From assembly GCA_039029455.1 (NCBI GenBank), contig JBCCGE010000001.1, positions 2,151-66,150 on the forward strand: DNA of 64,000 bases. The letters are read 5' to 3'. Below are positions 13,375 through 45,405 of the stretch, in pieces (positions within the stretch are counted from its first letter, which is position 1; every line of letters starts with the position of its first letter). This DNA is from Pseudomonadota bacterium. Its GTDB lineage: Bacteria > Pseudomonadota > Gammaproteobacteria > Arenicellales > Poriferihabitantaceae. Under the pieces are notes generated by a model that worked only from the letters and a program-made list of their open reading frames with translations, was not told the DNA's origin and ran no database searches. The translations under genes were made by a program, and so were the position numbers.

Positions 13375-13385
13375 CAGCAATCCCC

Positions 13386-14372: not shown

Positions 14373-14427
14373 ACGCCCAGAGATTTGCCCGGATGTCTCG
14401 CGAGACCCGTTTTATGAAGTATCTGGC

Positions 14428-14820: not shown

Positions 14821-14836
14821 AGTGTAGGTGAACACA

Positions 14837-16309: not shown

Positions 16310-16336
16310 TCCCCACTGTATGCCGGACTAAAGTAC

Positions 16337-17362
16337 TTATAACGGCACAGCGACAACGGCGAGAAAATCCCCGACGTTGATCAGGCCCGGAAAGTGTTTA
16401 CCGGTAACAATGCCGTCGATTTTCGAAAAATATTCTGTCGGAGCCGTGCCGGTTCGCTCCACATCATGGACGCGAGCGACGAGATCGCCGGCCTTGACAG
16501 GATCGCCCAGGTCGACGCAGTGCTCGATCATTCCGCTGGAGTCGCTGAAAACGTAACAATCCCCATCCGGCATGTCCAGATTCTTCGTATCTGATATCTC
16601 GGGTTCACCGGGCATGATGCCGGCGTGGCGCAGAACATTTCGTACGCCTTTCTTGGCAATTCCAACAGTGTATGCGGTTGAAGTGCCGCCACCGCTGAGT
16701 TCGGTACTGATAAATACTTTGCCCATTTTCTCCGCTGCAGTGTCGTACATGGTGGCGGCGTCGATTTCCAGAAGTTTCAGAGAATAGGGTGCGTTGAATG
16801 CCTGCATTGCCGCCATGCAGCGAGCTTGTTGATCCTCATCTTCCAGTACATGGATAGCGCAGAACGGGATGAAATCCAGCGTCTTTCCACCTGAGTGGAA
16901 ATCGATCACATAGTCCGCCAGCGGCAGTAAAGTGCGCTGAAAGTAATCGGCAATTTTTTCTGTAAGGGTGCCTGAGGGATTTCCCGGAAAAGCGCGGTTC
17001 ATGTTGCCGCCGTCGATGGGTGAGGTTCGCTTACCGGCTCGAAACGCCGGATAGTTCATCCCCGGTACAATGATGACTCGTCCCGAAATTGAGCTCACGT
17101 CGATGGTTTGTGTCAGGTCCCATAAGGCAATTGGACCCTCATACTCATCGCCATGATTCGCACCGGTAAACAGCGCAGTGGCGCCCTCACCGTTCTTGGC
17201 CACCGTAATTGGAATCATGATGGATCCCCAGGCTGAGGCATCGTGTGAAAACGGCAGTGAAAGGAACCCGTGCTGCAGGCCGTCCTTTTCGAAGTCAACA
17301 GTCGAGGTAATCGGGGAATCAATCATGTCTTTTGGGCTGGGTAATACGGTCTGGATTGACAA
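16337..17362 (-). CDS. succinylglutamate desuccinylase/aspartoacylase family deacylase (DoeB-like)
   Basis: GANHGDEYEGP zinc-site block, DFHSGGKTLDF and TELSGGG are AstE/AspA-family motifs. The length (341 aa) and layout resemble N-acetyl-diaminobutyrate deacetylases. Confidence 0.8.
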   Translation of the reverse strand: MSIQTVLPSPKDMIDSPITSTVDFEKDGLQHGFLSLPFSHDASAWGSIMIPITVAKNGEGATALFTGANHGDEYEGPIALWDLTQTIDVSSISGRVIIVPGMNYPAFRAGKRTSPIDGGNMNRAFPGNPSGTLTEKIADYFQRTLLPLADYVIDFHSGGKTLDFIPFCAIHVLEDEDQQARCMAAMQAFNAPYSLKLLEIDAATMYDTAAEKMGKVFISTELSGGGTSTAYTVGIAKKGVRNVLRHAGIMPGEPEISDTKNLDMPDGDCYVFSDSSGMIEHCVDLGDPVKAGDLVARVHDVERTGTAPTEYFSKIDGIVTGKHFPGLINVGDFLAVVAVPL

Positions 17363-17412
17363 GCATTGACGAACTCCCGGTCGGTGTCAATTCATAGTGG
17401 GCGCAAAATCAG

Positions 17413-18291
17413 TTAACGGTTGAGTGAGCATATCCAGTCGCGGAAACTGTATGAAGCCGGATTGTCCGCGCCGTTTTCAGTGATGCAGCAAAAATATCCA
17501 CGATCGCTCTCAAGTCTCAGTGAGGACGCCCTGCAAAGGTTTCCGTCATCCAGATGATCCTGCAGAAGGTATTCCCATCCGATAGCAATGCCTATCCCGC
17601 TGAGAGCCGCCTGTAAGTACACAATGTAGCTGTTGAAGGTTGCGCCCGGAACAGCCGCTGGTGCATCGATGTTCACACTGCCCAACAGAGATTGCCAATC
17701 CTTTCGATGCACCGGTTCCGCGTAGAAAAGCAGTTTTTGTTTGGTAAGTTCCTCCGGCATAAACCTGTCGCGATGCCCCAAAAGTTTCGGGTGGCACACC
17801 GTGATCATTTTCTCCCGAAAGATGTTCGTCACTTCGGTGCCGGGCATATTCGCATCACCAAATGTCACTGACACATCAGCGTCGCGAGTGTCCAGATTTG
17901 TGGTTGAGTCCCGCGTAATCAGCTGCAGATCAATCTCCGGGTAACGCTGATAGAAACCGGCCAGACGATTCAGTAACCAGCAACTGGAAATACCAATTGA
18001 GGTGATGACTCGAAGACTGTTTTGATTGCGAGCATCGTGAATACGCTGACATCCTGTCCTGATTTCGTGCATACCCCGCGAGATCGAGCGGTAAAGCTCT
18101 TCGCCTTCAGCCGTCAGGGACAGACGGGGTTTGCTCCTCACAAAAAGTCTTGTGCCCAGCGACTTTTCAAGTTCTGCAATCTGGCGACTGACAGCCGGCG
18201 GTTGAACGCCGAGGTCTTTCGCCGCCCGGGCGAAATTCAGAGTATTCGCCGCGACTTCAAAGGTTCGGATAGCGGTCAGAGAGGGCAGCAT
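17413..18291 (-). CDS. LysR family transcriptional regulator
   Basis: N-terminal wHTH LPSLTAIRTFEVAANTLNFARAAKDLGVQPPAVSRQIAELE followed by a LysR substrate-binding domain. Transcribed divergently from the operon that starts at 18394. Confidence 0.9.
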   Translation of the reverse strand: MLPSLTAIRTFEVAANTLNFARAAKDLGVQPPAVSRQIAELEKSLGTRLFVRSKPRLSLTAEGEELYRSISRGMHEIRTGCQRIHDARNQNSLRVITSIGISSCWLLNRLAGFYQRYPEIDLQLITRDSTTNLDTRDADVSVTFGDANMPGTEVTNIFREKMITVCHPKLLGHRDRFMPEELTKQKLLFYAEPVHRKDWQSLLGSVNIDAPAAVPGATFNSYIVYLQAALSGIGIAIGWEYLLQDHLDDGNLCRASSLRLESDRGYFCCITENGADNPASYSFRDWICSLNR

Positions 18292-18393
18292 ATTTGTTTA
18301 CAAAAATGAAACATTGTATTTCCGAAAAAAGCCAGTTTACAAGCTAATACCGTTGACTCAAAATTTCATTTATCTGAATCTGACCTGTCGACA

Positions 18394-19488
18394 ATGAAAG
18401 TTCTGGCTCTGGGTGGAGACGGCATTGGTCCGGAAGTTTTGGATTCGGCCTTGCGAGTTCTGGACGTTGCTGCAAAGTCGATCAATCTGAAATTTGATCT
18501 CACTGAAGATCTGCTGCACGGGGCGTGTTGGGAGAAACACGGCGTTTTTATACGGCAGCAGACTCTGGACGCGGCGAGGCAGACCGACGCCTTGCTGGTC
18601 GGTGCCGTCGGTGGGCCCGACTGGGATCATATCGTTGTCGAAGGTGGTCCGGAGGAACAGGACGGGCTGATGAAGCTTCGGCATGAGCTGGATGTCTTCG
18701 CCTGTGTGCGCAAGGCAAGGGCGTGGGATGCTCTGCTCGACAAGACCCCTTTTCGAGCTGACGTGGTCCGGGGTGCTGACATTGTCGTGATGCGTGAACT
18801 TTGCGGGGGTGCGATGTTTTCCGCCACGCGAGGGATGGATCAAACCAAAGATGGTGTCCGGCGAGCCTATGATCTGAATGAATACGATGCAAACGAAATT
18901 GCGCGTTTTGCGCGCGCCGGTTTCGCAATTGCGCAACGACGTCGGAAGAAAGTGGTGTCCGTCGATAAAGCCAATGTATTCATCGTTGGAAAACTCTGGC
19001 GTGAGGTGGTTGATGAGATCGCACGATCGGAATTTCCGGAGGTCGAGCTGAAACATTACTTTACAGACAATGCGGTCTACCAGATGAATTGTCGCCCCCG
19101 GGATTTCGACGTTTTTCTGGCAGACAATCTTTTTGGCGACCTGATGTCTGATCAATCCGCGTCGATTGCCGGATCTCTTGGCATGCTGCCGTCAGCGTCA
19201 TTGTCTCAAATCCCGTCGGCCGGTCGGGTGGAAGCACCGGCAATATATGAGCCGGTGCACGGCAGTGCACCGGATATTGCAGGCCTGGGCATTGCCAATC
19301 CCATTGGTATGATTCTTTCAATGGCGATGATGCTGGAGTATTCAGCAGATCAACCGGAGTGCGCGAAAAAAATCGAGGCTGCCGTTGAGCAGGTTCTGGA
19401 TTCGGGCTGTCGATCTGCCGACCTGGGAGGAAGTGCCACAACGATTGAAATCACTGATGCAGTGATTGCCGCGTTCAGATCGCTATGA
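18394..19488 (+). CDS. isocitrate/isopropylmalate dehydrogenase family oxidative decarboxylase (tartrate/3-IPM dehydrogenase-like)
   Basis: MKVLALGGDGIGPEV N-terminus, VDKANV, NLFGDLMSDQSASIAGSLGMLPSASL and YEPVHGSAPDIAG are family signature blocks. Confidence 0.85.
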   Translation: MKVLALGGDGIGPEVLDSALRVLDVAAKSINLKFDLTEDLLHGACWEKHGVFIRQQTLDAARQTDALLVGAVGGPDWDHIVVEGGPEEQDGLMKLRHELDVFACVRKARAWDALLDKTPFRADVVRGADIVVMRELCGGAMFSATRGMDQTKDGVRRAYDLNEYDANEIARFARAGFAIAQRRRKKVVSVDKANVFIVGKLWREVVDEIARSEFPEVELKHYFTDNAVYQMNCRPRDFDVFLADNLFGDLMSDQSASIAGSLGMLPSASLSQIPSAGRVEAPAIYEPVHGSAPDIAGLGIANPIGMILSMAMMLEYSADQPECAKKIEAAVEQVLDSGCRSADLGGSATTIEITDAVIAAFRSL

Positions 19489-21161
19489 AATCGACACCGG
19501 TCTATGACTATGTGGTTGCCGGGGGTGGCTCTGCCGGCTGCACGCTGGCGGCTCGTCTGTGTGAGGACCGCAACGTTTCGGTTTGTCTGATCGAAGCAGG
19601 CGGCAACGGACGAAACCTGTTTATTCGAATGCCCGCAGGAAACGGATTTGTGTTCGGGAATCCGCGACTGGACTGGGGGTTTACGTCGATTGCGCAAAAA
19701 AATCTGCATGGACGGCAAATTTATTTTCCGCGGGGAAAGGGTCTGGGTGGCACCTCGAATTTGAATGGCATGATGTACATGCGTGGGGTGCCCAAGGACT
19801 ATGATCGATGGCGCGACTCTGGGCTTGACGACTGGGGGTATTCGAATTTGTTGCCCTATTTCAAGCGATCAGAATGCTCTCGTGATCGCAGGGATTCCTG
19901 GCACGGGGTAAATGGACCGTTAAAAACTGAGCCGTCCGTCAACTTCAGTACTCTGGATCGCGCATTTATAGATTCGGCTGTTCGAGCAGGTCACAGGTTT
20001 CTCGATGATCTGAACGGTCCCGAGCGAACCGGCGTGGCTATTTCAGACTGCACAGTGCACAAGGGCGTTCGGCAGTCGAGTGCATTGGCGTACCTTGAAA
20101 AACGTCCGTCAAACCTGACCGTTTTGACCGGGAAACATATCCATCGCATCGCCTTCGACGGTACCCGTGCAGCGGGTGTTGAAATGGTAGATGGAAGCAT
20201 CATTCGCGCCGATCGTGAAGTCATTTCCTGCCTGGGCGCGTTTGGATCTCCGCAGGTGTTAATGTTGTCAGGAATTGGTTCTGCTGCCCATCTTGAGTCA
20301 CACGGAATTTCTGCCCGCGTCGATCTGCCCGCCGTGGGGCGGTATCTTGCAGATCATGTGGATGTGTCGATGCAGTACGGTTCGGATCGTATGGATTTAT
20401 CGCTGGCAAGGTTTCAGCGGCTGGACAAAGCGGCCGGCCTGATGGCCCGCTGGCTCTGGAACGGTTCAGGTCCCGGCGGTGGTGCGTTCTTTTCGGCTGT
20501 GCTTTTTCATGCGATCAATGATCCCGAACTGCCGGATATGGAAGTTTTCATGACGCCGATGACGATTAGCGAAAACCTCACGGATGGCAATAATGAACGC
20601 ACACCGTTGTCCCAGCTTCTGGGGAGAAAACTGCTGGTAAGGGGACGCAAGGTGGCAAAGCCCGGAGTGCAGATAGATATTAATCTGGAGCGTCCTTACT
20701 CCACCGGCACGGTCTGTCTGGCGGACAGCGATCCGATGTCTCATCCACTTATTGACCCGAACTATTTTTCAGACGAGCGTGATCTGGATGTCTTGCGAGA
20801 GGGTGTTGCTGTGATGCGGGAGGTTATGTCGCAGTCTGAAATTTCCCAATATCTGAATGGTGAGTTGGCGCCATGGAAGGGGGCTCGTAGCGTTGAGCAG
20901 ATTAACGAAGCCATTCGGGCTTCGGCTTATACCGGTCACCACCCCTGTTCCACCGTTCGCATGGGAGGAGTGGATGATGATTCAGCCCTTGACGCGAACT
21001 TATGCGTGCGCGGGGTCCAGGGCCTTCGTGTATGTGATGCCAGCGCCATGCCGACACAGATCACCGGCAACCTGAATGCAACGGTGATTGCCATGGCCGA
21101 GAAAGCAGCTGACCTGATTCTGGGAAAACCTCCACTGCCGCCGGAAGATCCGCAACCATGA
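19485..21161 (+). CDS. GMC family oxidoreductase (choline-dehydrogenase-like flavoprotein)
   Basis: YDYVVAGGGSAGCTLAARL FAD fold. GKGLGGTSNLNGMMYMRG (GMC signature 1) and a C-terminal HPCSTVRMG active-site His block. 4-bp overlap with the upstream gene. Confidence 0.9.
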   Translation: MKSTPVYDYVVAGGGSAGCTLAARLCEDRNVSVCLIEAGGNGRNLFIRMPAGNGFVFGNPRLDWGFTSIAQKNLHGRQIYFPRGKGLGGTSNLNGMMYMRGVPKDYDRWRDSGLDDWGYSNLLPYFKRSECSRDRRDSWHGVNGPLKTEPSVNFSTLDRAFIDSAVRAGHRFLDDLNGPERTGVAISDCTVHKGVRQSSALAYLEKRPSNLTVLTGKHIHRIAFDGTRAAGVEMVDGSIIRADREVISCLGAFGSPQVLMLSGIGSAAHLESHGISARVDLPAVGRYLADHVDVSMQYGSDRMDLSLARFQRLDKAAGLMARWLWNGSGPGGGAFFSAVLFHAINDPELPDMEVFMTPMTISENLTDGNNERTPLSQLLGRKLLVRGRKVAKPGVQIDINLERPYSTGTVCLADSDPMSHPLIDPNYFSDERDLDVLREGVAVMREVMSQSEISQYLNGELAPWKGARSVEQINEAIRASAYTGHHPCSTVRMGGVDDDSALDANLCVRGVQGLRVCDASAMPTQITGNLNATVIAMAEKAADLILGKPPLPPEDPQP

Positions 21162-22357
21162 GCGCAGAATCCAGATATCAAATCGTTACAAATGAATTAG
21201 CCAATGCGTGCCTCCGCATTCAATGGCGCGATGGACACTGCAGTGAATTCCACCCGATCTGGTTGCGGCATCAGTGTGAGTGTTCGGATTGTGGCACGCC
21301 GCTAAATGCAGTGCGTGCGCTTCGTATTTATCACATTCCTGCAGATATCAGCATTGCATCAATTGAGCACCAACACGGTTGTATCCGCATTGTCTGGTCG
21401 AACGATCACCATCGTTCGGAGTATTCAGCCCGCTGGTTGCGAGACCATTGTTATTCTCTGAGAGAGCGGCAGGCGCGTAAACATCGTCCCATATTGTGGG
21501 ATCACAATATCGGCGATAACCCGCCTGCATTTGATTTTGCAGCAGCAGAGGGGGATCCGTCGTGCCGGCTGGAGATGCTTGAAGCCGTTGCGGATTACGG
21601 CTTCTGCAAAATCGTAAATTCCCCCGGTGATCTGGAGCAGGCCGAGCGGCTAATTTCACTGGTCGGTGCCCGACGTCAGACTCATTTCGGGTTTTACCAA
21701 TTGTCGAAGAAGCCTTCGATCAACAATGTCGGTGATATCAAGCATGAACTGGTGCCCCACTGCGACGAAACCTATCGCACGTCAACCATAGGTATCACCG
21801 TATTTCAGGTGATTCGACCGGCTAAAGTTGGTGGCGATTCGACTTTAATGGACGGATTTGAAGCGGTTCGTCGACTGCGTGACACAGACCCGGACGGATT
21901 TGATTTACTGACACGGCTGCCGGTGTTCGCCCAGCGGCTGGATACAGATTATCTGCATCTGGATATGCCGAGACTGTATCAGTGCCGTCTGCCGGTCATT
22001 CGACTTGATGAGGACGGTGATGTGGTTGGTGTGCGAATCAATGAACGGCAGATTTCGCTGCTGGACGTGGCGCCTGAGCTGATCGAGCCCACATATAGTG
22101 CGTTACGCAACCTGATGAAAATTGTCTATGAACCTGATCTGCTGATACAGTTTCCACTGAAAAAGGGCGAGGGCCTGCTGTTTAATAATCAGAGGGTATT
22201 ACACGGCCGGACTGCCTTTGAGACCGAAACCCCCGGGCGCTCAGTGCTGACGAACTCGGTCGATCTGGAAGACTTTTACTCGAACCTTCGAATGCTGACC
22301 TCGAAATTGAAACCCGATCAACCGCCAACGACCTACACCCAGGGTCTGGTAACGTAA
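21158..22357 (+). CDS. gamma-butyrobetaine hydroxylase / trimethyllysine hydroxylase-type Fe(II)/2-oxoglutarate dioxygenase
   Basis: N-terminal DUF971-type domain with CECSDC (CxCxxC) and IWLRHQC. Catalytic HCDETY (HxD) and the distal VLHGRTAF His are present. 4-bp overlap with the upstream gene. Confidence 0.85.
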   Translation: MSAESRYQIVTNELANACLRIQWRDGHCSEFHPIWLRHQCECSDCGTPLNAVRALRIYHIPADISIASIEHQHGCIRIVWSNDHHRSEYSARWLRDHCYSLRERQARKHRPILWDHNIGDNPPAFDFAAAEGDPSCRLEMLEAVADYGFCKIVNSPGDLEQAERLISLVGARRQTHFGFYQLSKKPSINNVGDIKHELVPHCDETYRTSTIGITVFQVIRPAKVGGDSTLMDGFEAVRRLRDTDPDGFDLLTRLPVFAQRLDTDYLHLDMPRLYQCRLPVIRLDEDGDVVGVRINERQISLLDVAPELIEPTYSALRNLMKIVYEPDLLIQFPLKKGEGLLFNNQRVLHGRTAFETETPGRSVLTNSVDLEDFYSNLRMLTSKLKPDQPPTTYTQGLVT

Positions 22358-23974
22358 ATGACGATGACCAATCTGATCACCTGTGGCGAAGCCACCATGC
22401 TGTTGCTTGAACAATACGGAGTGGATACTGTATTCGGAATCCCGGGTGTGCACACTCTGGATTTCTGCCGTGGGATGTCCGACAGGTCAGGCAATGGGAT
22501 TCATCATGTGCAGACCCGCAACGAACAGGGCGCTGGCTTTATGGCCGAAGGGTGGTCACGCGCCACCGGTGACGTGGGTGTGGCCCTTGTGATCTCAGGT
22601 CCCGGTGTCACCAATGCAAGTACAGCACTGGGTCAGTCCTATGCTGACAGTCTGCCGGTTCTGCTGATCTCGGCTGAAGCGGCAAGTTACACCATTGGCA
22701 AAGGTTGGGGGGTATTGCATGAGGTTACAGAACAAAAACGCGTGACTGAACCACTGACCGCGTTTTCCGCGACCGCACAATCCGCTGCGGATGTGCCGCT
22801 GCTTCTGGCGCAGGCATTCGCGGTTTTTCGAAGCCAGCGACCTCGCCCCGTTCATATTTCTATTCCGATTGATGTGCAGGCCGAGATGGTGGAGCCCGGC
22901 TGGGCTGCGCTAAGTCCACCCGGAAGACCGCGGGCGTCGGATTCACAAATCGAACGGGCGGCCGGGTTGCTGCGATCCGCAAAATGTCCGCTGTTGATGA
23001 CCGGCGGAGGTGCAGTGTCCGCCAGTGAGAGTCTGACGCGGATTGCAGAATCCACCGGCGCCATTGTTGTCGCATCGACGGCGGGCAAGGGTGTGGTTGC
23101 AGATGACCACCCGCTGTCGCTGTCGGCGTCCACTGTGCGACCGGAAGTGCTCGGTTTTCTGCACGAAGCGGACGTTATTCTCGCGGTTGGAACAGAGTTG
23201 TCTGAAACAGACAGCTTTGTTGAACGCATGGATCTGCTTGGAAAAATCATTCGCGTTGATATCGACCCGACCAAGGTGAACGACTTCTATCCCGCCGAGC
23301 ACGGGATCGTCGCCGATGCGGATGACACCATGATGCGCCTGGCGCAGCTGCTGGGTGATGATGCCAGTGCGAACAGGTTAGCGCAGGAAAAACGGGTTGA
23401 AGTAATCCGGCAGCAGATTGCGGCCAACCTTTCAGCATCAGAAAAGCAGCACGTCGAGACGCTGAATCGGTTGTCGGCGATTGCACCCGAGGACACAATA
23501 TGGTCCGGTGACGCTTGCCAGCTGGTGTACACCGGTGCGTTCGCCATGCCTATGCAGCGACCGCGACACTGGTTTTACCCGGCCGGTTACTGTGCACTCG
23601 GCAACGCGTTGCCGAACGCTATTGGCGCCAAGCTGGCGTGTCCGAATCAGCCGGTTTGCGTATTGGCGGGAGATGGTGGTTTTATGTTCACCATGCCTGA
23701 GTTGATCACGGCGGCTGAACTGAATCTGTCGATTCCGATCATCATCTGGGAAAACGGCGGCCTGAAGCAAATCCAGGACGATATGGACGGTCGCGATATC
23801 GCTCGCGTAGGTGTGGAGGGTATCAATCCGGATTTCGTGGCGCTGGCGCAGGCCTGTCACTGCTATGGCGAGCGTTGTGAAACCCTTGACGATCTCGAAA
23901 GAGCCTTTAATGCGGCGTTGACTCGGGATCGACCTAGCGTAATAGTGGTTCCTGAAAAACAGCCTGATTTGTGA
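22358..23974 (+). CDS. thiamine-diphosphate-dependent enzyme (acetolactate-synthase-like fold)
   Basis: N-terminal Pyr domain (GVDTVFGIPGVHTL, NEQGAGFMAEGW) and C-terminal ThDP motif LAGDGGFMFTMPEL...IIIWENGG. Start abuts the upstream stop. Confidence 0.85.
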   Translation: MTMTNLITCGEATMLLLEQYGVDTVFGIPGVHTLDFCRGMSDRSGNGIHHVQTRNEQGAGFMAEGWSRATGDVGVALVISGPGVTNASTALGQSYADSLPVLLISAEAASYTIGKGWGVLHEVTEQKRVTEPLTAFSATAQSAADVPLLLAQAFAVFRSQRPRPVHISIPIDVQAEMVEPGWAALSPPGRPRASDSQIERAAGLLRSAKCPLLMTGGGAVSASESLTRIAESTGAIVVASTAGKGVVADDHPLSLSASTVRPEVLGFLHEADVILAVGTELSETDSFVERMDLLGKIIRVDIDPTKVNDFYPAEHGIVADADDTMMRLAQLLGDDASANRLAQEKRVEVIRQQIAANLSASEKQHVETLNRLSAIAPEDTIWSGDACQLVYTGAFAMPMQRPRHWFYPAGYCALGNALPNAIGAKLACPNQPVCVLAGDGGFMFTMPELITAAELNLSIPIIIWENGGLKQIQDDMDGRDIARVGVEGINPDFVALAQACHCYGERCETLDDLERAFNAALTRDRPSVIVVPEKQPDL

Positions 23975-25449
23975 TGAAACGATACCAGTATTTTGCGAAT
24001 AACGAGTGGCACGATCCCGACTCGGGTCAATATATCGACAGCGAAAACCCTGCGTTGGGTGAGGTCTGGGCTCAGATTCCCGACTGCAATCAAAGTGATA
24101 TTGATCGTGCAGTGGCCGCTGCGAAAGATGCATTTTATCGAGGTCCATGGGGGCGAATGATGTCCGCTGAGCGCGGGCGGCTGATGCGACGAATGGGTGA
24201 CGTCATATCAAAATATGCGGATCATCTCGGTGAGATCGAAACCCGGGACAACGGCAAGCTGCCGAAAAATATTACGCCGTCTTTAAAGCCTGCGGCATGG
24301 CAGGTCGACAGTTTCCACTACTACGGCGGGATGTGTGACAAGTTTGAAGGCAGTCTGATACCAGCCGAGGCGCCGGATATTCACAACTACCTGAAATGGG
24401 AGCCGTTTGGTGTCTGCGGTTTGATCCTGCCGTGGAACTCGCCACTGGGCACACTGATCTGGAAACTCGCGCCCTGTCTGGCTGCGGGCAATACCGTGGT
24501 CATGAAACCTTCAGAGCAGTCGTCGTGTTCGACACTCGAGTTGATGAACGTGTTGCTTGAAGCAGATCTGCCACCCGGTGTTTTGAATGTGGTGACAGGC
24601 TACGGTCCGACCACCGGTGAGCCGCTGCTCGATCATGATGATGTGCGAATGGTGTCGTTTACCGGCGGAACAGCTGGAGGCAGGGCGGCCGCGGCCGTTG
24701 CCGCGCGCAAGATCAAACCAATCGTTATGGAACTCGGTGGAAAATCCCCTCAGATCGTCCTGCAGGATGCAGATCTTGACCTCGCGGTGAACGGAGTAGC
24801 TTCGGGTATTTTTCCGGCAGGGGGGCAAAGCTGCATCTCGGGTTCACGTCTGCTGGTGCATCAATCCGTTAAAGATGACTTTGCCTCCCGGCTGGTCGAT
24901 ATTGTACAGAAGGCGAAGGTTGGCGATCCGACGGACTGTGCGACTCAGATTGGACCGATGGCGAACCGGCCACACTATGAGCGCGTGCTGGAGAAGATTT
25001 CCGCTGCGGAAGCGGCGGGTCACCGTTTGTTGCTGGATGGCCGATCGGCGTGTCGAGATCGGGGTTACTACATCGGCCCTACGATTTTTGCTGACGTGCC
25101 AAACGATTCCGAGCTGGCGCAAACGGAGGTATTCGGTCCGGTGGTGTCGATCGAAAGCTGGAGTGATGAAGACGAGGCAATTCGCATTGCAAACGACACA
25201 GACTACGGATTGGCAGCGGGAATCTGGTCGCGTGACGTAGGCAAGGCAATGAGATTGGCGGACCGAATTGAGGCCGGTACCGTCTACATTAACAATTATT
25301 TCAATGCGGCGACGCAGTCACCGGTCGGTGGGTACAAGCAGTCCGGCTACGGTCGGGAAAACGGCTTTGAGGGTATGCGCTGTTTCATGCAGACCAAATC
25401 AGTCTGGTTGTCGACAAATCCTTCGCAACCCGATCCGTTTGCGAGCTGA
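23971..25449 (+). CDS. NAD(P)-dependent aldehyde dehydrogenase
   Basis: VMELGGKSPQIV and GGQSCISGSRLLV (catalytic Cys), EVFGPV and PVGGYKQSGYGRE blocks. 4-bp overlap with the upstream gene. Confidence 0.9.
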   Translation: MMKRYQYFANNEWHDPDSGQYIDSENPALGEVWAQIPDCNQSDIDRAVAAAKDAFYRGPWGRMMSAERGRLMRRMGDVISKYADHLGEIETRDNGKLPKNITPSLKPAAWQVDSFHYYGGMCDKFEGSLIPAEAPDIHNYLKWEPFGVCGLILPWNSPLGTLIWKLAPCLAAGNTVVMKPSEQSSCSTLELMNVLLEADLPPGVLNVVTGYGPTTGEPLLDHDDVRMVSFTGGTAGGRAAAAVAARKIKPIVMELGGKSPQIVLQDADLDLAVNGVASGIFPAGGQSCISGSRLLVHQSVKDDFASRLVDIVQKAKVGDPTDCATQIGPMANRPHYERVLEKISAAEAAGHRLLLDGRSACRDRGYYIGPTIFADVPNDSELAQTEVFGPVVSIESWSDEDEAIRIANDTDYGLAAGIWSRDVGKAMRLADRIEAGTVYINNYFNAATQSPVGGYKQSGYGRENGFEGMRCFMQTKSVWLSTNPSQPDPFAS

Positions 25450-25466
25450 GTCTTTTTACAGGCGCA

Positions 25467-26582
25467 ATGACGGTCACCACACACACGCCGGTACGTTCAA
25501 AGTTAGAGCTGGATGGCGCGCGGGTGGATGTGAAATCATCTGATGCCGTCAATATCGTTGTGCGCATTTTTCAGTCCCTGGGCTGCAGTCCGGAGACAGC
25601 AGTTACGGTGGCAGAACATCTTGCGGACACCAGTCTTTGCGGAATGGAGAGTCACGGTTTAATGCGCACCTTGCAGTATGCAGAGCAGTTTCGCACGGGC
25701 TACATGGATGCGAGTGCGGTACCTGAAGTGATTCACACTGATCGGGGTACGATTGAAGTCAGCGGGCGCGGCGGTATTGGCATTCCTGCTATGGCGCTGG
25801 CTTATGAAACCGGAATGCATTTTGCGAAAAAATCCGGTGTTTCGGCGTTGTCCGTTCGGGACGCCGGACACACGGGGCGGCACGGAGCGTTTGCGGATAG
25901 CGCCGCGGAAAAGGGGTACCTCACGATTTGCCTCGGCGGTGGCAATCGCCATATCTGGCGACAGGTCGCACCGCACGGGGGTGCACGGGGTATGTTGCCG
26001 ACAAATCCCTGGTGTGCGGGGGTACCGGGTGGTGAACGAGGCCCGGTGGTAATGGATTTCGCGACGTCAAAAATTGCCGGTGGCTGGATATACGCGGCCA
26101 AAAGTGCCGGCGCCCTGTTGCCGGAAGGCTGCATCATTGACCGTGATGGAAACCCCACCCGGAGCCCGGACGACTACTTCGACGGTGGAGCAATCCTGCC
26201 CTCCGGTGCTCAAAAAGGTTATGCGCTTGCACTTGTCGCGGAACTGATAGGGGAAGCCATGCTCGGTCCGTCATCCACGGAGTGCAATTGGCTACTCATT
26301 ACATTGGATGCCACGAAATTCAGACAACCGACGGCAATGCAGTCTGCTGCAGAGGCCGTGCTTGACGAGCTGCGTAGCTGCCCGCCTGCCCCGGGGTTTG
26401 ACCGGGTGGAGATCCCGGGTGAACGAGAACGAGACTATCGCCAGCGATCGGCAGGTGTTATTTCGGTGCCCGAGCAGACCTGGAAGCAGATACTCGAATT
26501 GGAATCAGATACCAGGCAGCCGGTCCCGAAATCGGGATCGGCAATAAAATTACATCCACTGAATTCATCAGAGAGGTCGTGA
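25467..26582 (+). CDS. Ldh_2 family oxidoreductase (malate/L-lactate/sulfolactate dehydrogenase type 2)
   Basis: GMESHGLMR, DAGHTGRHG, TNPWCAGVP and GAQKGYALALVAELIGEAMLG are typical Ldh_2 blocks. Confidence 0.8.
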   Translation: MTVTTHTPVRSKLELDGARVDVKSSDAVNIVVRIFQSLGCSPETAVTVAEHLADTSLCGMESHGLMRTLQYAEQFRTGYMDASAVPEVIHTDRGTIEVSGRGGIGIPAMALAYETGMHFAKKSGVSALSVRDAGHTGRHGAFADSAAEKGYLTICLGGGNRHIWRQVAPHGGARGMLPTNPWCAGVPGGERGPVVMDFATSKIAGGWIYAAKSAGALLPEGCIIDRDGNPTRSPDDYFDGGAILPSGAQKGYALALVAELIGEAMLGPSSTECNWLLITLDATKFRQPTAMQSAAEAVLDELRSCPPAPGFDRVEIPGERERDYRQRSAGVISVPEQTWKQILELESDTRQPVPKSGSAIKLHPLNSSERS

Positions 26583-27551
26583 ATGACTGAGCCCGCAGTC
26601 GCAGACGCGAAATATCAACCTGCATATGTGCAGACACCCCCCATCTTTGCCTGGCCGCCGAGGTTGCTGGCTTCGCTGAAGTACCTGACATTGGGCATGC
26701 TCTATCCGTGGGGATTCTTTTATCTTCTCATCGCGGTGCCGACATGGGCCTATCTGACACCATCGCTTCAGACTATGGCCACGTTCGAGCCGGGATGGCT
26801 GGCCCTGCTATGGATACGAAACTGTGTTTTCATTTGCCTGTTTGCCGGTGCACTGCAGTGGCATTTCCACATCCGAAAAGCCCAGGACGCAAAATACAGA
26901 ATTAACCGAAAAGAACTGTCGGAGAATAATCCTCTGTTCTTGTGGGGCAATCAGGTTCGCGACAACATGTTCTGGACCATTGCCTCCGGTGTCACCGTCT
27001 GGACGGCCTACGAGGCAGTGACCTGGTGGATGTATGCCAACGGGCGGGTCGTTCTGGAATACAACCTGATCTGGTTTGTTGCCAGCATCTATATTTTATT
27101 CTTCTGGTCCACGTTTAATTTCTACTGCGTGCACCGTGTTCTGCATTTCCCGGGTGTGTACAAACACGTTCACGAACTGCATCACCGCAATGTGGATGTC
27201 GGACCGTGGTCAGGTATTTCCATGCACCCGGTAGAACATCTGCTGTATTTCACGCCGTTTGTATTGTGGTGGTTTGTACCAGTCCACCCGGTGATCATCC
27301 TGATCACCGGGTTTTATCAGGCGCTGAATCCGGCACTCTCACACTCAGGTTATGACTATCTGGAAGTTGGTCCATTGAAACTCAAAACCGGTGACTGGTT
27401 TCATCAACTGCATCACCAGTATTTCAATCTAAACTACGGCAACACCCCGACACCTATTGATAAAGTATTCGGCAGTTGGCACGATGGCAGCAGAGAATCC
27501 ATGAAGATTCAGCAGGCACGCATCCGCGAAAGGCGCCGACAATCTGCCTGA
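26583..27551 (+). CDS. fatty-acid hydroxylase / sterol desaturase superfamily membrane di-iron oxygenase
   Basis: Has N-terminal TM helices and three histidine boxes: HRVLH, HELHHRN and HQLHHQYF. ATG directly follows the upstream TGA. Confidence 0.8.
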   Translation: MTEPAVADAKYQPAYVQTPPIFAWPPRLLASLKYLTLGMLYPWGFFYLLIAVPTWAYLTPSLQTMATFEPGWLALLWIRNCVFICLFAGALQWHFHIRKAQDAKYRINRKELSENNPLFLWGNQVRDNMFWTIASGVTVWTAYEAVTWWMYANGRVVLEYNLIWFVASIYILFFWSTFNFYCVHRVLHFPGVYKHVHELHHRNVDVGPWSGISMHPVEHLLYFTPFVLWWFVPVHPVIILITGFYQALNPALSHSGYDYLEVGPLKLKTGDWFHQLHHQYFNLNYGNTPTPIDKVFGSWHDGSRESMKIQQARIRERRRQSA

Positions 27552-27581
27552 ATCTAAATACCGACATAAAACATAAATATC

Positions 27582-28415
27582 ATGAAAAGAATCTACGATT
27601 TCAGCCGCAGTCCGGCCCGCCGTAACTACACAGTTTCAGATCTTCAGGCGTTGAAAGGGTCGGGCAAAAAATTAAGCATGAGTAACCCGGCGAATGCGGC
27701 AGAACTTCAGGCCTGCATCGATTCCGGCATCGATCTTCTGGTGGTGTGGGACAGTCAGATTGAGGAGGTGCGACAGATTGCGCCCAATCATTTTATGGGC
27801 GTCGGCAGCACCTGGTCACAGTTCGGTGATCCAAAAGACATTCTCGAGCACGCGTTCGATATGATGCGCAAAGGTGGCGATATGTACTACACACTGCGCT
27901 CTTATGAGGTGATGGAGATGCTGGCTAAAGAGGGTATTCCGGTACAAAGCCACATCGGACTGATTCCCACATTCAGTCACTGGTGCGGCGGTTTGCGAGC
28001 TTTCGGGCGGACTGCAGAAGAGGCGATGGAAATCTACCGGACACTCAAACGTATGGAAGATGTCGGCGTGTTTGCCGTGGAAGCGGAATGCATTGCGGAA
28101 GAGGTGCTGGAGGCCGTCAATGACAAGACGTCCATCGTGACGTTTTCGCTGGGATCCGGCATGTCCGGGGACGTCATCATGTCGTTCGTCAAGGACATTT
28201 GCGGTGAGAACAGTGAAGAAGACAAGCCGCCCAAACACGCCCATGCGTTTGGCAATCTGCAGCGACTGCACGATCAGATCTACGAAGAACGGGTTGCCGC
28301 GCTAAAGGAATTTCATGACGAGGTTGTGGCAGAGAACTTTCCCTACGCAGCAACCAACGTGTCGATGCATCCGGATGAAAAAGACAAGTTTCTGGAAGCT
28401 CTGGATAAAAGCTGA
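27582..28415 (+). CDS. divergent ketopantoate hydroxymethyltransferase (PanB)-family protein
   Basis: GIPVQSHIGLIPTFSHWCGGLRAFGRTAEEA...VGVFAVEAECIAEEV...VTFSLGSGMSGDVIMSFVKDICG parallels PanB blocks (IPV.GHIGLTPQ..GG....GR, E.VP, IGIGAG..DGQVLV..D). The N-terminal region is divergent. Confidence 0.6.
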   Translation: MKRIYDFSRSPARRNYTVSDLQALKGSGKKLSMSNPANAAELQACIDSGIDLLVVWDSQIEEVRQIAPNHFMGVGSTWSQFGDPKDILEHAFDMMRKGGDMYYTLRSYEVMEMLAKEGIPVQSHIGLIPTFSHWCGGLRAFGRTAEEAMEIYRTLKRMEDVGVFAVEAECIAEEVLEAVNDKTSIVTFSLGSGMSGDVIMSFVKDICGENSEEDKPPKHAHAFGNLQRLHDQIYEERVAALKEFHDEVVAENFPYAATNVSMHPDEKDKFLEALDKS

Positions 28416-28543
28416 AACTCGGAATTCTTGTAGCTCGGTTTCTAATCTGATCCAGCAGCTTTTATGCATATAGGACTCCAAGCAGTCCTTGTAGCGACGC
28501 GGTGTGAGTGTCGGCATCTCCTACATTGGGAGATACGGTAAAA

Positions 28544-28585
28544 AATCGGGAGATCAACAGTTTAGAGAACAGATCTCTCCCGATT
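28544..28585. terminator. hairpin between convergent genes (probable bidirectional terminator)
   Basis: aatcgggagatc (28544-28555) pairs with gatctctcccgatt (28572-28585) with a 2-nt bulge and a 16-nt loop. It lies in the 191-bp gap between the convergent stops at 28415 and 28607. No strong U-tract. Confidence 0.4.
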
Positions 28586-28606
28586 CTAGCCAGCACATTG
28601 AACTGC

Positions 28607-29230
28607 CTAGTTATTACAAATACCCGAGACCCTTACCGCCGCGCAATTGGCAATATATGGACTGAAAATGGTTTTCGTTGAATACCATCGATGCCCACTC
28701 GCCCATGCTCCGATTTTCCCCTTGGTTGCACCGCAACCTTCGTCACCATTCGAAGCGGTATGAACCGTCATCTGCACACTGTCCGCGAGGCGAGCGACGT
28801 GGCAACACGCCGCTTTTTCCATGGCGTACTTGATGTCGAATGGATTAGTGGCGGGTGTGAGATAGATGGGATTGATTCTAAAGTCCTTTACGGTCTCCGC
28901 ACCGCGTGACACTGTGCACGCCTCTACTGATTGTCCAACTCTTGGGTTTCGATTGTTTGGCCACCTCTTTTCCCACAGATCAATCCCGCATCGTTCAATC
29001 GCTCGAGCTGCTCGTATGCGGCAGTCATTGGCTCTTAAGCGATTCTTGCAGGAACCTCTACCCTGCAGGGTTGCGAATATTTCAGGCTTTGAATAACCGT
29101 CTACCGAGATTCCAATGGAACCACTGCAACCTCGCGAGATATCAGAATGAGCATTTTGCACAGATAGCGCGGATAAAATTAAACTGCTGATGATCACCGT
29201 TGCACGGTGTATAGCTTGATATTGATTCAT
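28607..29230 (-). CDS. secreted cysteine-rich hypothetical protein
   Basis: N-terminal signal-like segment (ATVIISSLILSALSVQNAHS) and 12 Cys in the remainder. No family recognised. Confidence 0.5.
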   Translation of the reverse strand: MNQYQAIHRATVIISSLILSALSVQNAHSDISRGCSGSIGISVDGYSKPEIFATLQGRGSCKNRLRANDCRIRAARAIERCGIDLWEKRWPNNRNPRVGQSVEACTVSRGAETVKDFRINPIYLTPATNPFDIKYAMEKAACCHVARLADSVQMTVHTASNGDEGCGATKGKIGAWASGHRWYSTKTIFSPYIANCAAVRVSGICNN

Positions 29231-29416
29231 TTCTTGCCCCCAATAAATGAATGTTACGTTGAATGTGATTTGCCGTCAGATGCTACAAATCGTGTCTCTA
29301 CGGATAAAGGCGTTACGGCTCAAAACCCTTGGAGAATCACCAGTGGCCGCTGTCAGTCAGTGTTAACGAATCACTGATTACCCCACAATTACGCTAACAC
29401 GAGGAATGGGTGAAAT

Positions 29417-29432
29417 CTGTGATATCGATCAC
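29417..29432. promoter_or_regulatory. consensus CRP (cAMP receptor protein) binding site
   Basis: TGTGA-tatcga-TCACA has both half-sites perfect with the canonical 6-bp spacer, flanked by aaatc/gtttt. It sits in the 364-bp divergent intergenic region, 187 bp from the start at 29230 and 163 bp from the start at 29595. Confidence 0.55.
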
Positions 29433-29594
29433 AGTTTTATATTGGTGGGACTGCTAAGATAGCGAGAGCCAAAGTGAGTTTAAAAGTATACTGTTGCGAT
29501 AAATTCCGAAACCTGAAGGCTTGGGATTGTTCAGGCAAGATGATTATTTAACTAACGGTGTAAAGTTTTGGGACTTTTTGGGGGGAGCTAAACT

Positions 29595-30155
29595 TTGATT
29601 TCAAGTCAAAGACGACGATATTTTATCGGCGCTGATGTTGTGAGTAGAGTTGTTTTTGCGATACTGTTCTTACTCGCGGTATCGCAAGTGCTTGCACAGC
29701 AAACCGTAGTAGTCATACCTTTGGGTGACAGTGAGCTTGAGATCGAACCCACCGCACCAATGGCTCGGGCCGATACGGTTAGTCGCGACTATACGATTTT
29801 ACCCAATACGGTTATCGACAACTTAACTGGACTGGAATGGCAGCGTCTGGACGACGATACAACTCGCGAATGGATTCCTGCGATCAGTTATTGTCGGAAT
29901 CTTGTGCTTGATAGCCATTCCGACTGGCGCCTGCCAACGGTTGTTGAACTGCATTCGATTGTGGACTATGGAAGTTCTGCCGCAGCCATTGAGCAAGTTG
30001 CATTTCCAGGAACCAATTCTTCATTGTATTGGTCAAGATCTGTACCGGCGGGAAGCGCCATCGGAGATTTCGTGAATTTTAATACCGGCGGTATTAATGA
30101 CGTCTTAGTCATTTCGGCACAATTCCTTGTTCGCTGTGTTCGGGAGCCATCATGA
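29595..30155 (+). CDS. DUF1566 (Lcl C-terminal domain) secreted protein
   Basis: Has a signal peptide (VVFAILFLLAVSQVLAQQ). LEWQR, W..A..YC..L, DWRLPTVVELHSI, YWS and VRCVR are the DUF1566 hallmarks. TTG start. Confidence 0.7.
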   Translation: MISSQRRRYFIGADVVSRVVFAILFLLAVSQVLAQQTVVVIPLGDSELEIEPTAPMARADTVSRDYTILPNTVIDNLTGLEWQRLDDDTTREWIPAISYCRNLVLDSHSDWRLPTVVELHSIVDYGSSAAAIEQVAFPGTNSSLYWSRSVPAGSAIGDFVNFNTGGINDVLVISAQFLVRCVREPS

Positions 30156-30667: not shown

Positions 30668-30820
30668 AGATAGTAAACATCATCACCAGTAGAAGATGAA
30701 TACAGATGTGGCTGGTGAACGACAGAGTCCGTGAAAAATGTAAATTAACATTTCAATGCATTGGAAATGCACGCACCCGTCGTTAAAGGTTAGTAGAAAA
30801 TTGGCTTCAGATCAGATCGG

Positions 30821-34360: not shown

Positions 34361-34369
34361 GACCGTGCG

Positions 34370-36201: not shown

Positions 36202-36299
36202 GTTGAGCCAGTCTTCCCGTGTGACCTTGACGTGGCCAACTAGCGGCGCCTTGTCAGGGTCGTCGCGATGCAGGATCGGTATGGCCTGGCGTGCGATGG

Positions 36300-45245: not shown

Positions 45246-45405
45246 TAAACGCCTTCAATCGGCAGGATCGACAGGGGCAAGTATCCAGATATTGGTGTGA
45301 ATGGCAACCGGGCTGCCGATTTTGTGAGTTCTGGTTCGCGGTTGTATGTGCCAGAGCCGACGTCGGTTAGTATCGCAGTTGGTTCATTGGTGTCCTTCAT
45401 TAGAG

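Follow-up and report, generated by a model that had tools for sequence, protein, structure and literature searches.

A LysR-linked oxidative operon combining a divergent BBOX/TmpA-like dioxygenase with a LeuB-derived dehydrogenase: a candidate catabolic route for a small cationic compound

The subject of this report is an oxidative operon at positions 18394-28415 of a 64,000-nucleotide stretch of DNA (the window) from contig JBCCGE010000001.1 in the metagenome-assembled genome of an uncultivated Pseudomonadota bacterium assigned to the Arenicellales (assembly GCA_039029455.1). We found that its eight enzyme genes are a conserved six-gene block fused to a unit made up of a membrane di-iron oxygenase and a PanB-like protein, and that the Fe(II)/2-oxoglutarate (2OG) dioxygenase encoded in the block carries an active site unlike that of its characterised relatives. 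From the observed gene order, conservation, active-site changes and neighbours we infer the reactions, their order and the kind of substrate: the operon may encode a LysR-activated catabolic route for a small cationic compound with a primary alcohol and a carboxylate, in which hydroxylation is followed by the stepwise loss of single carbons. We put the probability of this reading at roughly one in three (0.35); the substrate is most likely N-methylated. The protein superfamilies involved and the type of LysR-controlled catabolic operon are already known. Undescribed in the curated models and the literature that we searched are the gene combination, the dioxygenase signature, the altered loop and missing tyrosine of the LeuB-derived dehydrogenase, and the unit of di-iron oxygenase and PanB-like protein.

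An earlier note on this DNA had described nine open reading frames, a LysR gene and eight enzyme genes, and our listing of reading frames reproduced all nine at the same coordinates. Checked base by base, the 4-bp start/stop overlaps read ATGA at 19485/19488 and 21158/21161 and GTGA at 23971/23974; the genes are in direct contact at 22357/22358 and 26582/26583 and are separated by 17 bp at 25449/25467 and by 30 bp at 27551/27582, much as had been claimed. Domains in the window proteins were called with Pfam and with NCBIfam release 20 at curated cut-offs, and Pfam agreed with every enzyme family that had been named (Iso_dh, GMC_oxred_N/C, GBBH-like_N plus TauD, TPP_enzyme_N/M/C, Aldedh, Ldh_2, FA_hydroxylase and a partial Pantoate_transf). 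Two operon proteins reach an NCBIfam cut-off, one near the threshold of the LeuB model and the other at subfamily level only. The statement that no characterised pathway combines these activities also stood: no curated model assigns the gene set to a pathway, and none was found in the literature searched.

The regulator gene lies on the reverse strand at 17413-18291, divergently oriented and, as reported before, 102 bp ahead of the first enzyme gene. Its product has the HTH_1 and LysR_substrate domains and resembles GcvA and choline-sulfate regulators, with top NCBIfam scores of 222 bits for GcvA and 218 bits for the choline-sulfate utilisation transcription factor, both under cut-off. The spacer (18292-18393) contains a dyad, TGTTT-N9-AAACA at 18295-18313, of the T-N11-A type that is the architecture of LysR boxes, and a -35-like TTTACA at 18336-18341 within a promoter-like match at 18336-18364. 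Domains, divergent orientation and dyad are thus those of a LysR-type divergent catabolic operon. We compared the window proteins with 54 genomic loci around dioxygenase homologues and with four contigs of the closest relatives (designated by L numbers). Regulator orthologues of 51-63% identity are equally divergent in L055, L057 and L058; a related TTTCA..TGAA dyad stands beside the regulator gene in these three loci and in L001, and about 30 bp beyond it all four share a conserved element, CCAGTTTACA or GGGTTTACA. Because the dyad and the -35-like element occupy the spacer and have counterparts in relatives, LysR control of the operon appears well supported by its anatomy. A terminator scan of the window was uninformative, with 15 sites against 12.8 expected. 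One feature downstream of the operon is a perfect 10-bp inverted repeat (AATCGGGAGA / TCTCCCGATT; -19.7 kcal/mol, z = -2.7) at 28544-28585, between the PanB-like gene and a convergent, unannotated reading frame of 207 aa at 28607-29230. As its T-run is on the minus strand, this hairpin probably serves the latter reading frame as a terminator, rather than the operon.

The dioxygenase gene (21158-22357, forward strand) encodes a Zn-binding N-terminal domain and a TauD fold (Pfam GBBH-like_N and TauD). The protein scores under the cut-offs of all specific NCBIfam models, namely TmpA (NF049936, 246 against 400 bits), BBOX (TIGR02409, 232/415) and TMLH (TIGR02410, 166/268), and its nearest solved structures are TmpA (6npb, 171 bits) and then human BBOX (127 bits). 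Its active site was aligned in 29 family members, and cage positions were checked in 43 sequences. The Fe triad H201/D203/H349, the 2OG arginine R361 and a BBOX-type Zn site, C40/C42/C45/H85, are invariant in the 29 members, as is Asn190, the equivalent of the carboxylate ligand Asn191 of BBOX; N295 is also kept, and R297 sits at the position of the phosphonate-binding Arg288 of TmpA. The aromatic cage of BBOX consists of Tyr177, Trp181 and Tyr194, and Tyr366 is hydrogen-bonded to Asp204 (PMC13257696; PMC4736438). Positions 177 and 181 are still aromatic in most members of the present family. Elsewhere in the pocket the enzyme has a signature of D193, E204, E296, R297 and S367 in place of BBOX Y194, Y205, N293, A294 and Y366; across the family, position 205 is Glu and position 293 nearly always Glu (Asp in the outlier L042). 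The signature is the same with or without an adjoining isopropylmalate dehydrogenase (IPMDH)-like gene. Because the substitutions Asp194, Ser or Thr366, Glu205 and Glu293 are kept across the clade, we regard it, on its residues, as a distinct BBOX/TmpA-like subfamily.

The enzyme shares its fold, the family of its N-terminal domain, the Fe triad, the 2OG arginine and the equivalent of BBOX N191 both with BBOX and with TmpA, which acts with TmpB on 2-(trimethylamino)ethylphosphonate in Leisingera caerulea. It is like TmpA in the R288-equivalent arginine and like BBOX in the Zn site. In the TmpA reaction the hydroxyl goes to the carbon that is alpha to the acid and beta to nitrogen (PMC9296572), and hydroxylation beta to nitrogen would be expected here too. 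It is unlike both in that it matches them with only 171 and 127 bits, below the NCBIfam cut-offs, and in the replacements Y194 to Asp, Y366 to Ser, Y205 to Glu and N293 to Glu; the N187/N287/R288 set with which TmpA binds phosphonate is here N190, E296 and R297. The partner of TmpA is the HD-domain protein TmpB, whereas the partner here is a LeuB-like dehydrogenase, and Pfam found no HD-domain TmpB partner among the operon genes. The earlier note had reasoned from a BBOX/TMLH-type enzyme to a trimethylammonium substrate. With three models missed, TmpA as the closest structure, a cage tyrosine turned into Asp and Tyr366 into Ser, that step is unsafe: a cationic ligand would still be expected, though not necessarily one with a trimethylammonium group.

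The first enzyme gene (18394-19488, forward strand; Iso_dh, 369 bits) encodes the IPMDH-like enzyme, a beta-decarboxylating dehydrogenase that just passes the LeuB model (TIGR00169, 383 bits, cut-off 353) and matches genuine solved LeuBs with about 317 bits and about 45-50% identity. It scores far less well with the tartrate/D-malate dehydrogenase models (TIGR02089, 220/470; PRK08194, 208/501). We checked its residues in 28 family members and the window protein, using the numbering of T. ferrooxidans LeuB. R95, R105, R133, K190', N192', V193', D222', D246 and D250 are invariant throughout, and because the malate, Mg and catalytic residues are all conserved in this way, the substrate should still be a (2R)-malate with both carboxylates, as judged from the active site. 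In contrast, the loop that contacts the C3 substituent reads GGPEEQDGLM where LeuB has RPE-QGLL: two residues are inserted, an Asp ahead of Gly90 is invariant, and LeuB Leu92 is Met or Thr across the family (Met in the window). The catalytic Tyr140 is replaced by Met in the proteins of the larger gene blocks described below, that is, in the window (M141), L001, L009, L014, L047 and L060, and is kept in the proteins encoded in simple pairs with the dioxygenase. The window enzyme thus lacks both the isopropyl pocket of LeuB (Glu88-x-x-Leu91-Leu92, Val193') as a set and its catalytic tyrosine. A malate whose C3 substituent is polar or cationic would fit the new loop. Known systems close to this enzyme are LeuB, whose malate, Mg and catalytic Lys/Asp residues it keeps, and pantoate catabolism via 3,3-dimethylmalate dehydrogenase, since the order of alcohol dehydrogenase, aldehyde dehydrogenase (ALDH) and beta-decarboxylating dehydrogenase is that of the classical pantoate route. 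Unlike LeuB, the present enzyme has no leuC or leuD gene nearby, and it has the loop insertion with its invariant Asp, the change of L92 to Met or Thr and, in the window subtype, the change of Tyr140 to Met. A housekeeping LeuB was rejected on these grounds: a LysR-controlled operon without leuCD, an altered loop and the loss of Tyr140.

Of its gene partners, the dioxygenase is tied most closely to the IPMDH-like enzyme. Where at least 1.5 kb was available on both sides of the dioxygenase gene (37 loci), the dioxygenase and IPMDH-like genes are directly adjacent in 29, spanning Alpha- and Gammaproteobacteria and one Acidimicrobiales metagenome-assembled genome. Eighteen of the 29 have a minimal unit, usually a divergent LysR gene followed by dioxygenase and IPMDH-like genes, and come from Alphaproteobacteria and other lineages; cultured carriers are Leisingera, Ruegeria arenilitoris, Falsiruegeria mediterranea, Pseudophaeobacter, Tropicibacter and Aliisedimentitalea scapharcae. 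The other 11 have a block in the order divergent LysR, IPMDH-like, GMC, dioxygenase, (thiamine diphosphate (ThDP) enzyme), ALDH, (Ldh_2), with 59-87% protein identity to the window except for the dioxygenase (53-70% overall) and the GMC protein of L010 (49%). Every block-type locus with a dioxygenase has the IPMDH-like, GMC, dioxygenase and ALDH genes; the ThDP gene is missing in L010 and L056 and the Ldh_2 gene in L057, so that these two are optional, as expected of downstream steps.

The question raised earlier, whether the eight-gene order recurs and which members are invariant, therefore has a divided answer: the full set of eight does not recur, and a six-gene block with four invariant members does. 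Only the window and L055 have an FA_hydroxylase gene after the block (the two are 66% identical and in the same position), and a PanB-like gene stands beside a dioxygenase-containing block only in the window, which speaks against an eight-gene unit. Nor is the operon built around its dioxygenase, as had been suggested. Roseobacters carry only LysR, dioxygenase and IPMDH-like genes, and the cultured alphaproteobacterium Defluviimonas sp. WL0024 (L060:1052-12059, JAOVQO010000020.1) has a LysR-divergent, translationally coupled cluster without it, in the order IPMDH-like (56%), GMC (70%), ThDP (70%), ALDH (77%), PanB-like (82%), Ldh_2 (68%), MmgE/PrpD and Htd2. One might conclude that there is no single pathway, and that modules of dioxygenase and IPMDH-like enzyme, GMC and ALDH, ThDP enzyme and Ldh_2, and FA_hydroxylase and PanB-like protein, each with its own substrate, are merely juxtaposed. 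Such modules do occur apart, as the dioxygenase-IPMDH pair alone, as strings of GMC, ALDH, FA_hydroxylase, MttB-family and PanB-like genes, and as PanB-like genes with those for an FA_desaturase, a Rieske ferredoxin and a class II aldolase. Yet start/stop overlaps and abutments join the genes in the window, the six-gene order is kept at 59-87% identity in many genomes, and the same modules re-associate variously in unrelated taxa, which is typical of the steps of one metabolic network. We consider mere juxtaposition extremely improbable.

The four other enzymes of the block are each recognisable at family level. The GMC flavoprotein (19485-21161, forward strand; GMC_oxred_N/C) is a choline-dehydrogenase-like alcohol oxidoreductase that scores under the cut-offs of NF002550 (497/605) and of betA (TIGR01810, 417/732). 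Among solved structures it comes closest to an oxygen-dependent choline dehydrogenase (9lq0, 328 bits), and orthologues in most block-type loci are 64-71% identical, the 49% of L010 apart. In L055 the GMC gene is broken into three called reading frames of 114, 37 and 408 aa (L055:8324-10004), by decay into a pseudogene or by an assembly frameshift. The ALDH, predicted to be NAD(P)-dependent (23971-25449, forward strand; Aldedh, 539 bits), is the product of the most conserved block gene (76-87% identity). Its nearest models are those for BADH (TIGR01804, 470 bits, cut-off 669) and aminobutyraldehyde dehydrogenase, both below cut-off, and it is about as close to ALDH1/2 structures as to BADH structures. 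GMC protein and ALDH thus recall choline oxidation by BetA and BetB, the former having a choline dehydrogenase as its best solved relative and the latter BADH as its best model; unlike that system, they score only 417/732 and 470/669, they stand with four to six further enzymes, and the ALDH is equally ALDH1/2-like.

The ThDP-dependent 2-oxoacid decarboxylase (22358-23974, forward strand; TPP_enzyme_N/M/C) passes the model of the 5-guanidino-2-oxopentanoate decarboxylase (AruI) subfamily (NF005712, 570 bits, cut-off 500), an assignment at subfamily level that does not fix the substrate. AruI itself acts on a cationic 2-oxo acid. In both the operon and the AruI/KauB steps of the arginine transaminase pathway an enzyme of this subfamily comes directly before an ALDH, an arrangement that can shorten a cationic 2-oxo acid by one carbon; in contrast to that pathway, the operon has neither an aminotransferase nor a guanidinobutyrase, its context is different, and the kinship holds for the subfamily only. 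The last gene of the block (25467-26582, forward strand) encodes an Ldh_2-family oxidoreductase (272 bits) of the 2-hydroxyacid/2-oxoacid or imine reductase type, with a best NCBIfam match of 177 bits against a cut-off of 336 and orthologues at 68-78% identity.

Arranged by their canonical reaction types, these enzymes could form a single route. The GMC enzyme and the ALDH would turn the alcohol, via the aldehyde, into a second carboxylate, giving a 2-substituted succinate; the dioxygenase would hydroxylate the carbon next to that carboxylate, beta to nitrogen, giving a 3-substituted (R)-malate; and the LeuB-derived dehydrogenase would oxidise and decarboxylate this to a 2-oxo acid. The AruI-like enzyme would then decarboxylate the 2-oxo acid to an aldehyde, and the ALDH would convert this to a glycine-betaine-type acid, two carbons shorter overall, for demethylation by the products of nearby MttB, DMGDH and Sox genes. 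Ldh_2 may act as a buffer by interconverting the 2-oxo/2-hydroxy acid pair. We propose this order because the reaction types fit the pattern of presence and absence, with the four invariant genes first and the optional ones last. There is a precedent for such company in the carnitine pathway discussed below, where a LysR regulator, an ALDH, a beta-decarboxylating dehydrogenase and an oxygenase for a quaternary amine are found together (PMC11353897).

The neighbourhood of the operon suggested the N-methyl groups. Genes for the demethylation of N-methyl amines start 2.4 kb from it, at 30821-40276 on the reverse strand (Pfam and NCBIfam): SoxA, SoxD (34094-34360), SoxB, a TetR regulator, an MttB-family methyltransferase, a DMGDH-type enzyme and possibly SoxG. 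The MttB-family gene (36300-37865, reverse strand; Pfam 658 bits, 274 against a cut-off of 525 with the trimethylamine methyltransferase equivalog) lies between the TetR gene and the DMGDH-type gene (37862-40276, reverse strand). Characterised non-pyrrolysine enzymes of the MttB family demethylate quaternary amines, and DMGDH and GCV_T proteins hand the N-methyl carbon to tetrahydrofolate. The earlier note had called this a complete glycine-betaine demethylation block. It is not demonstrably so: the SoxG candidate (30821-31423) has no family match, and no corrinoid-protein gene was found near the MttB-family gene.

The link to methylated amines itself held up, since DMGDH-type, MttB-family and choline-sulfatase neighbours recur in related loci. 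In L055, the closest relative, a DMGDH-type gene follows the FA_hydroxylase gene on the same strand, directly downstream of the operon; MttB-family genes adjoin the dioxygenase-IPMDH pair in L026 and L044; MttB and GCV_T genes occur inside PanB-like clusters; and in Leisingera sp. ANG1 the pair lies amid genes for a choline sulfatase, a Rieske oxygenase alpha subunit, a BKACE protein, two GlxA/AraC regulators, CaiB-type CoA transferases and a DMFA2-like protein. Taken together, the recurring MttB, DMGDH, GCV_T, choline-sulfatase and BKACE neighbours point to methylated-amine catabolism. Overall, what stands of the earlier interpretation is a LysR-linked, coupled and conserved operon with a methylated-amine connection; the eight-gene unit, the dioxygenase as its centre, the trimethylammonium argument and the completeness of the flanking block do not.

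To our knowledge, homoserine betaine is the sole natural compound that can be named in which a primary alcohol and a quaternary ammonium group are combined with a skeleton that would give a substituted succinate. Trichodesmium has it as its main compatible solute, and it also forms the headgroup of DGTS, an abundant betaine lipid. On the route proposed above, homoserine betaine, free or released from DGTS, would pass through aspartate betaine, 3-hydroxyaspartate betaine, 3-trimethylammoniopyruvate and betaine aldehyde to glycine betaine. It is our lead candidate, though a doubtful one. Its fate was stated to be unknown in 2021 (bioRxiv 10.1101/2021.03.10.434842), and the literature that we searched on homoserine betaine catabolism and betaine-lipid breakdown held nothing to contradict that statement. 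A bolder form of the proposal, which we hold to be distinctly unlikely, is that the block is the first homoserine-betaine catabolic route, ending in glycine betaine, and that the tail pair of the operon represents a second widespread marine system for the same "onium" class that passes one-carbon units to tetrahydrofolate. Two enzymes would then be unprecedented: a 3-hydroxylase of aspartate betaine with BBOX/TmpA ancestry, and a dehydrogenase of LeuB descent that acts on 3-(trimethylammonio)malate.

Between marine phytoplankton and bacteria, methylated amines and betaines serve as major currencies of carbon, nitrogen and energy, and several abundant ones, homoserine betaine and betaine-lipid headgroups among them, have no known route of degradation. 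The gene set described here is highly conserved in seawater, sediment and sponge-symbiont members of the Gamma- and Alphaproteobacteria, stands time and again next to demethylation genes, and would define new specificities in three well-studied families, BBOX/TmpA, LeuB and PanB. Current annotation mislabels its products: the dioxygenase is a "TauD/TfdA family dioxygenase", the PanB-like protein is a "3-methyl-2-oxobutanoate hydroxymethyltransferase", and the LeuB model would call the first enzyme "3-isopropylmalate dehydrogenase". As parts of the set are present in cultured strains (Defluviimonas sp. WL0024 and the Roseobacter carriers), the question is directly testable.

Several observations weigh against the proposed route. 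BBOX position 194 is Asp in 43/43 dioxygenase family sequences and position 366 is Ser in 40/43 and Thr in 3/43; a cage Asp, Ser366 and three extra acids might just as well point to a primary ammonium or guanidinium group. The window dehydrogenase lacks Tyr140, so its chemistry may differ from that of LeuB. The Defluviimonas cluster has MmgE/PrpD and a hydratase instead of the BBOX-like dioxygenase. These genes may replace the hydroxylation step; they suggest dehydration and rehydration, a LeuCD-like isomerisation to a substituted malate, and such an isomerisation implies a carbon-linked substituent, being chemically awkward for an N-linked group such as that of aspartate betaine. Aspartate betaine was not found as a metabolite in the literature searched, which returned only lipid papers. 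In Roseobacter loci with the dioxygenase and IPMDH-like genes alone, the route would end in 3-trimethylammoniopyruvate, which is not a central metabolite. No transporter gene lies within the operon. The gene beside LysR in the window, a DoeB homologue taken up below, points towards diaminobutyrate/ectoine-type compounds, and the roles given to the FA_hydroxylase and the PanB-like protein are speculative.

The end product of the Roseobacter loci is better accommodated by a route of the carnitine type, in which the dioxygenase would act on carnitine, gamma-butyrobetaine or a close analogue, either making carnitine or hydroxylating beside nitrogen and so releasing trimethylamine. The ALDH would then convert malic semialdehyde to D-malate, and the IPMDH-like enzyme, as a decarboxylating D-malate dehydrogenase, would give the central metabolite pyruvate, mirroring CntAB, malic semialdehyde dehydrogenase (MSA-DH) and MDH, except that a 2OG dioxygenase would stand in for the Rieske enzyme. 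The aerobic L-carnitine pathway of Acinetobacter baumannii and Escherichia coli (CarR, CntAB, MSA-DH and a decarboxylating D-malate dehydrogenase) indeed resembles the operon in its divergent LysR gene, quaternary-amine oxygenase, ALDH and IPMDH-superfamily dehydrogenase, the ALDH being part of the A. baumannii cluster only (PMC11353897), and the Roseobacter order LysR, dioxygenase, IPMDH-like parallels E. coli carR-mdh-(bcct)-cntAB. The Leisingera pair, amid BKACE, CaiB-type and Rieske genes, fits as well. Against this, the operon has a 2OG dioxygenase with an altered BBOX cage and not a two-component Rieske enzyme; no genes for a CntA-type Rieske oxygenase, a CntB-type reductase or a BCCT transporter were found in 16000-30800. 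The dehydrogenase derives from LeuB (383 bits) and not from the tartrate/D-malate clade (TIGR02089, 220/470), and its remodelled loop with an invariant Asp is not needed for D-malate. The GMC, ThDP and Ldh_2 enzymes have no role in such a route, and DMGDH and MttB neighbours imply stepwise demethylation and not the release of trimethylamine. A carnitine-type route is in our view distinctly unlikely.

The acidic residues of the dioxygenase bear on a different possibility, that the substrate is not methylated and carries a primary ammonium or guanidinium group, as 2,4-diaminobutyrate, another ectoine-derived compound or an arginine-related acid would. The dioxygenase would then be an amino-acid beta-hydroxylase, and the ThDP enzyme and the ALDH would work like AruI and KauB of the arginine transaminase pathway. 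Besides the Asp and Glu in the cage and its surroundings, the subfamily of the ThDP enzyme favours this, as does a gene at 16337-17362 on the reverse strand, co-directional with LysR and 50 bp downstream of it, for a DoeB/EutE-type N-acetyl-L-2,4-diaminobutyrate deacetylase (TIGR02994, 550 bits, cut-off 403). DoeA-like M24 hydrolases are encoded near the dioxygenase in L021, L046, L057 and L058, and an arginase-family gene lies at 47007-48029. But the DoeB adjacency was seen only in the window and is absent from L055, L057 and L058; the M24 and PhyH neighbours score far under the ectoine-pathway cut-offs; the arginase-family gene is 18 kb away and under all cut-offs; the operon has no aminotransferase; and the recurrence of MttB, DMGDH and GCV_T argues for N-methyl groups. 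We regard a non-methylated substrate of this kind as unlikely, if worth keeping in view. No DoeA, DoeC or DoeD genes were found near the window DoeB gene. An ectoine pathway was set aside as the principal interpretation, the M24 and PhyH neighbours being far under the DoeA and EctD cut-offs and the DoeB adjacency confined to the window.

The tail of the operon consists of two forward-strand genes. The first (26583-27551) encodes a membrane di-iron hydroxylase of the FA_hydroxylase family (Pfam 78 bits, no NCBIfam model) with the His boxes HRVLH, HELHH and HQLHH. The second (27582-28415) encodes a divergent PanB-like protein of the ICL/PEP-mutase superfamily, in which Pantoate_transf matches residues 86-254 only (99 bits) and the panB model TIGR00222 gives 68 bits against a cut-off of 208. 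It keeps the DS, HIGL and EC motifs, and the K112-x-E114 of PanB is gone, with KxEGG aligning with YTLRS. Because this Lys112-x-Glu114 motif is absent, we do not class the protein as a ketopantoate hydroxymethyltransferase, and a genuine PanB was rejected on the motif and on a score far below cut-off. More than 100 relatives match it at 79-87% identity.

We surveyed the context of this family, which is 70-87% identical across marine bacteria, in 80 marine metagenome loci (L061-L140). Its commonest setting is a divergent LysR gene, (PhyH, HD-domain), class II aldolase, FA_desaturase-type membrane di-iron protein, PanB-like, Rieske ferredoxin and (DddP-like M24 or GCV_T folate-binding protein). 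In one such cluster, L137:5421-9886, the class II aldolase corresponds to PRK07490 and the FA_desaturase-type protein is weakly GntB-like. An FA_hydroxylase gene stands immediately beside the PanB-like gene in at least 13/82 loci. In L070, L073 and L076 a divergent LysR gene is followed by a string of GMC, ALDH, (FA_hydroxylase or PhyH), (MttB-family) and PanB-like genes; L073 and L076 have the MttB-family gene, which was not detected in the L070 string. GMC proteins in strings of this type are 67-70% and ALDHs 80-83% identical to those of the window, so orthologues of these two enzymes appear to serve both block-type and PanB-like clusters. On the contig with the L058 block, about 170 kb separate the block from a PanB-like gene, which is divergent from an FA_hydroxylase gene and beside genes for PhyH and a beta-hydroxyacid dehydrogenase. 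On its own, in dozens of other settings, the two-gene unit is thus far commoner than the block. The tail pair probably acts on the class of compound that the block handles, in a step that an oxygenase initiates and that is possibly coupled to one-carbon transfer.

A PanB-like protein in this company also raises the pantoate reactions. Pantoate is oxidised to aldopantoate (EC 1.1.1.106) and on to 3,3-dimethylmalate (EC 1.2.1.33), which yields 2-oxoisovalerate and CO2 (EC 1.1.1.84). By analogy, pantoate or a similar 2,4-dihydroxy acid could be oxidised by the GMC enzyme and the ALDH to a 3,3-disubstituted malate, on which the IPMDH-like enzyme would act as a decarboxylating dehydrogenase of the dimethylmalate type; a parallel path via the 2-oxo acid would be formed by Ldh_2 and the PanB-like protein, with one-carbon units passed to tetrahydrofolate, and the dioxygenase would be an accessory enzyme of the upper pathway. 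The match of this established enzymology to the order alcohol dehydrogenase, ALDH and decarboxylating dehydrogenase supports the idea, as does the dioxygenase-free Defluviimonas cluster with its IPMDH-like, GMC, ThDP, ALDH, PanB-like and Ldh_2 genes, and the change of Tyr140 to Met in block-type dehydrogenases could make space for a second C3 substituent. We nevertheless think it very unlikely. The PanB-like protein lacks Lys112 and Glu114 and is far below the panB cut-off, a gem-dimethyl substrate gives no reason to expect the new acids of the dioxygenase pocket and the IPMDH loop, the dioxygenase-IPMDH pairing and the MttB and DMGDH neighbours are left unexplained, and pantoate, a trace vitamin precursor, is an improbable growth substrate. 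A literature search made for genes of the dimethylmalate route turned up none.

More distant dioxygenases, with 47-48% identity and the D/E/E/R signature kept, are encoded at about 8980-13620 in L038-L040. They are flanked by genes for DMGDH, MttB, a ureidoglycolate-lyase-like protein and, by eye only, a GabT-type aminotransferase, and a beta-hydroxyacid dehydrogenase in these loci is 74% identical to one beside PhyH and PanB-like genes in L059. These loci are another variant of the same gene network.

Other genes of the window lie on either side of the operon. A forward-strand row at 8930-16309 encodes a 931-aa protein resembling Orn/Lys/Arg decarboxylases (far below the decarboxylase cut-offs), a C45-family autoproteolytic acyltransferase/hydrolase, an amidase and an ATP-grasp protein that passes PRK06524, "biotin carboxylase" (773 bits, cut-off 684). 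Small proteins with an Lcl C-terminal domain (83 and 99 bits) are encoded by two tandem, overlapping forward-strand genes at 29595-30667, after the operon and before the sarcosine oxidase genes. Further downstream, 44370-48029 holds genes for an AraC regulator, a Gly_transporter-family protein and the arginase-family protein already mentioned, which is under the agmatinase, HutG and arginase cut-offs, and 58884-60170 encodes a GDPD glycerophosphodiester phosphodiesterase. The 44370-48029 genes and the GDPD gene could bear on the catabolism of guanidino compounds or lipid headgroups.

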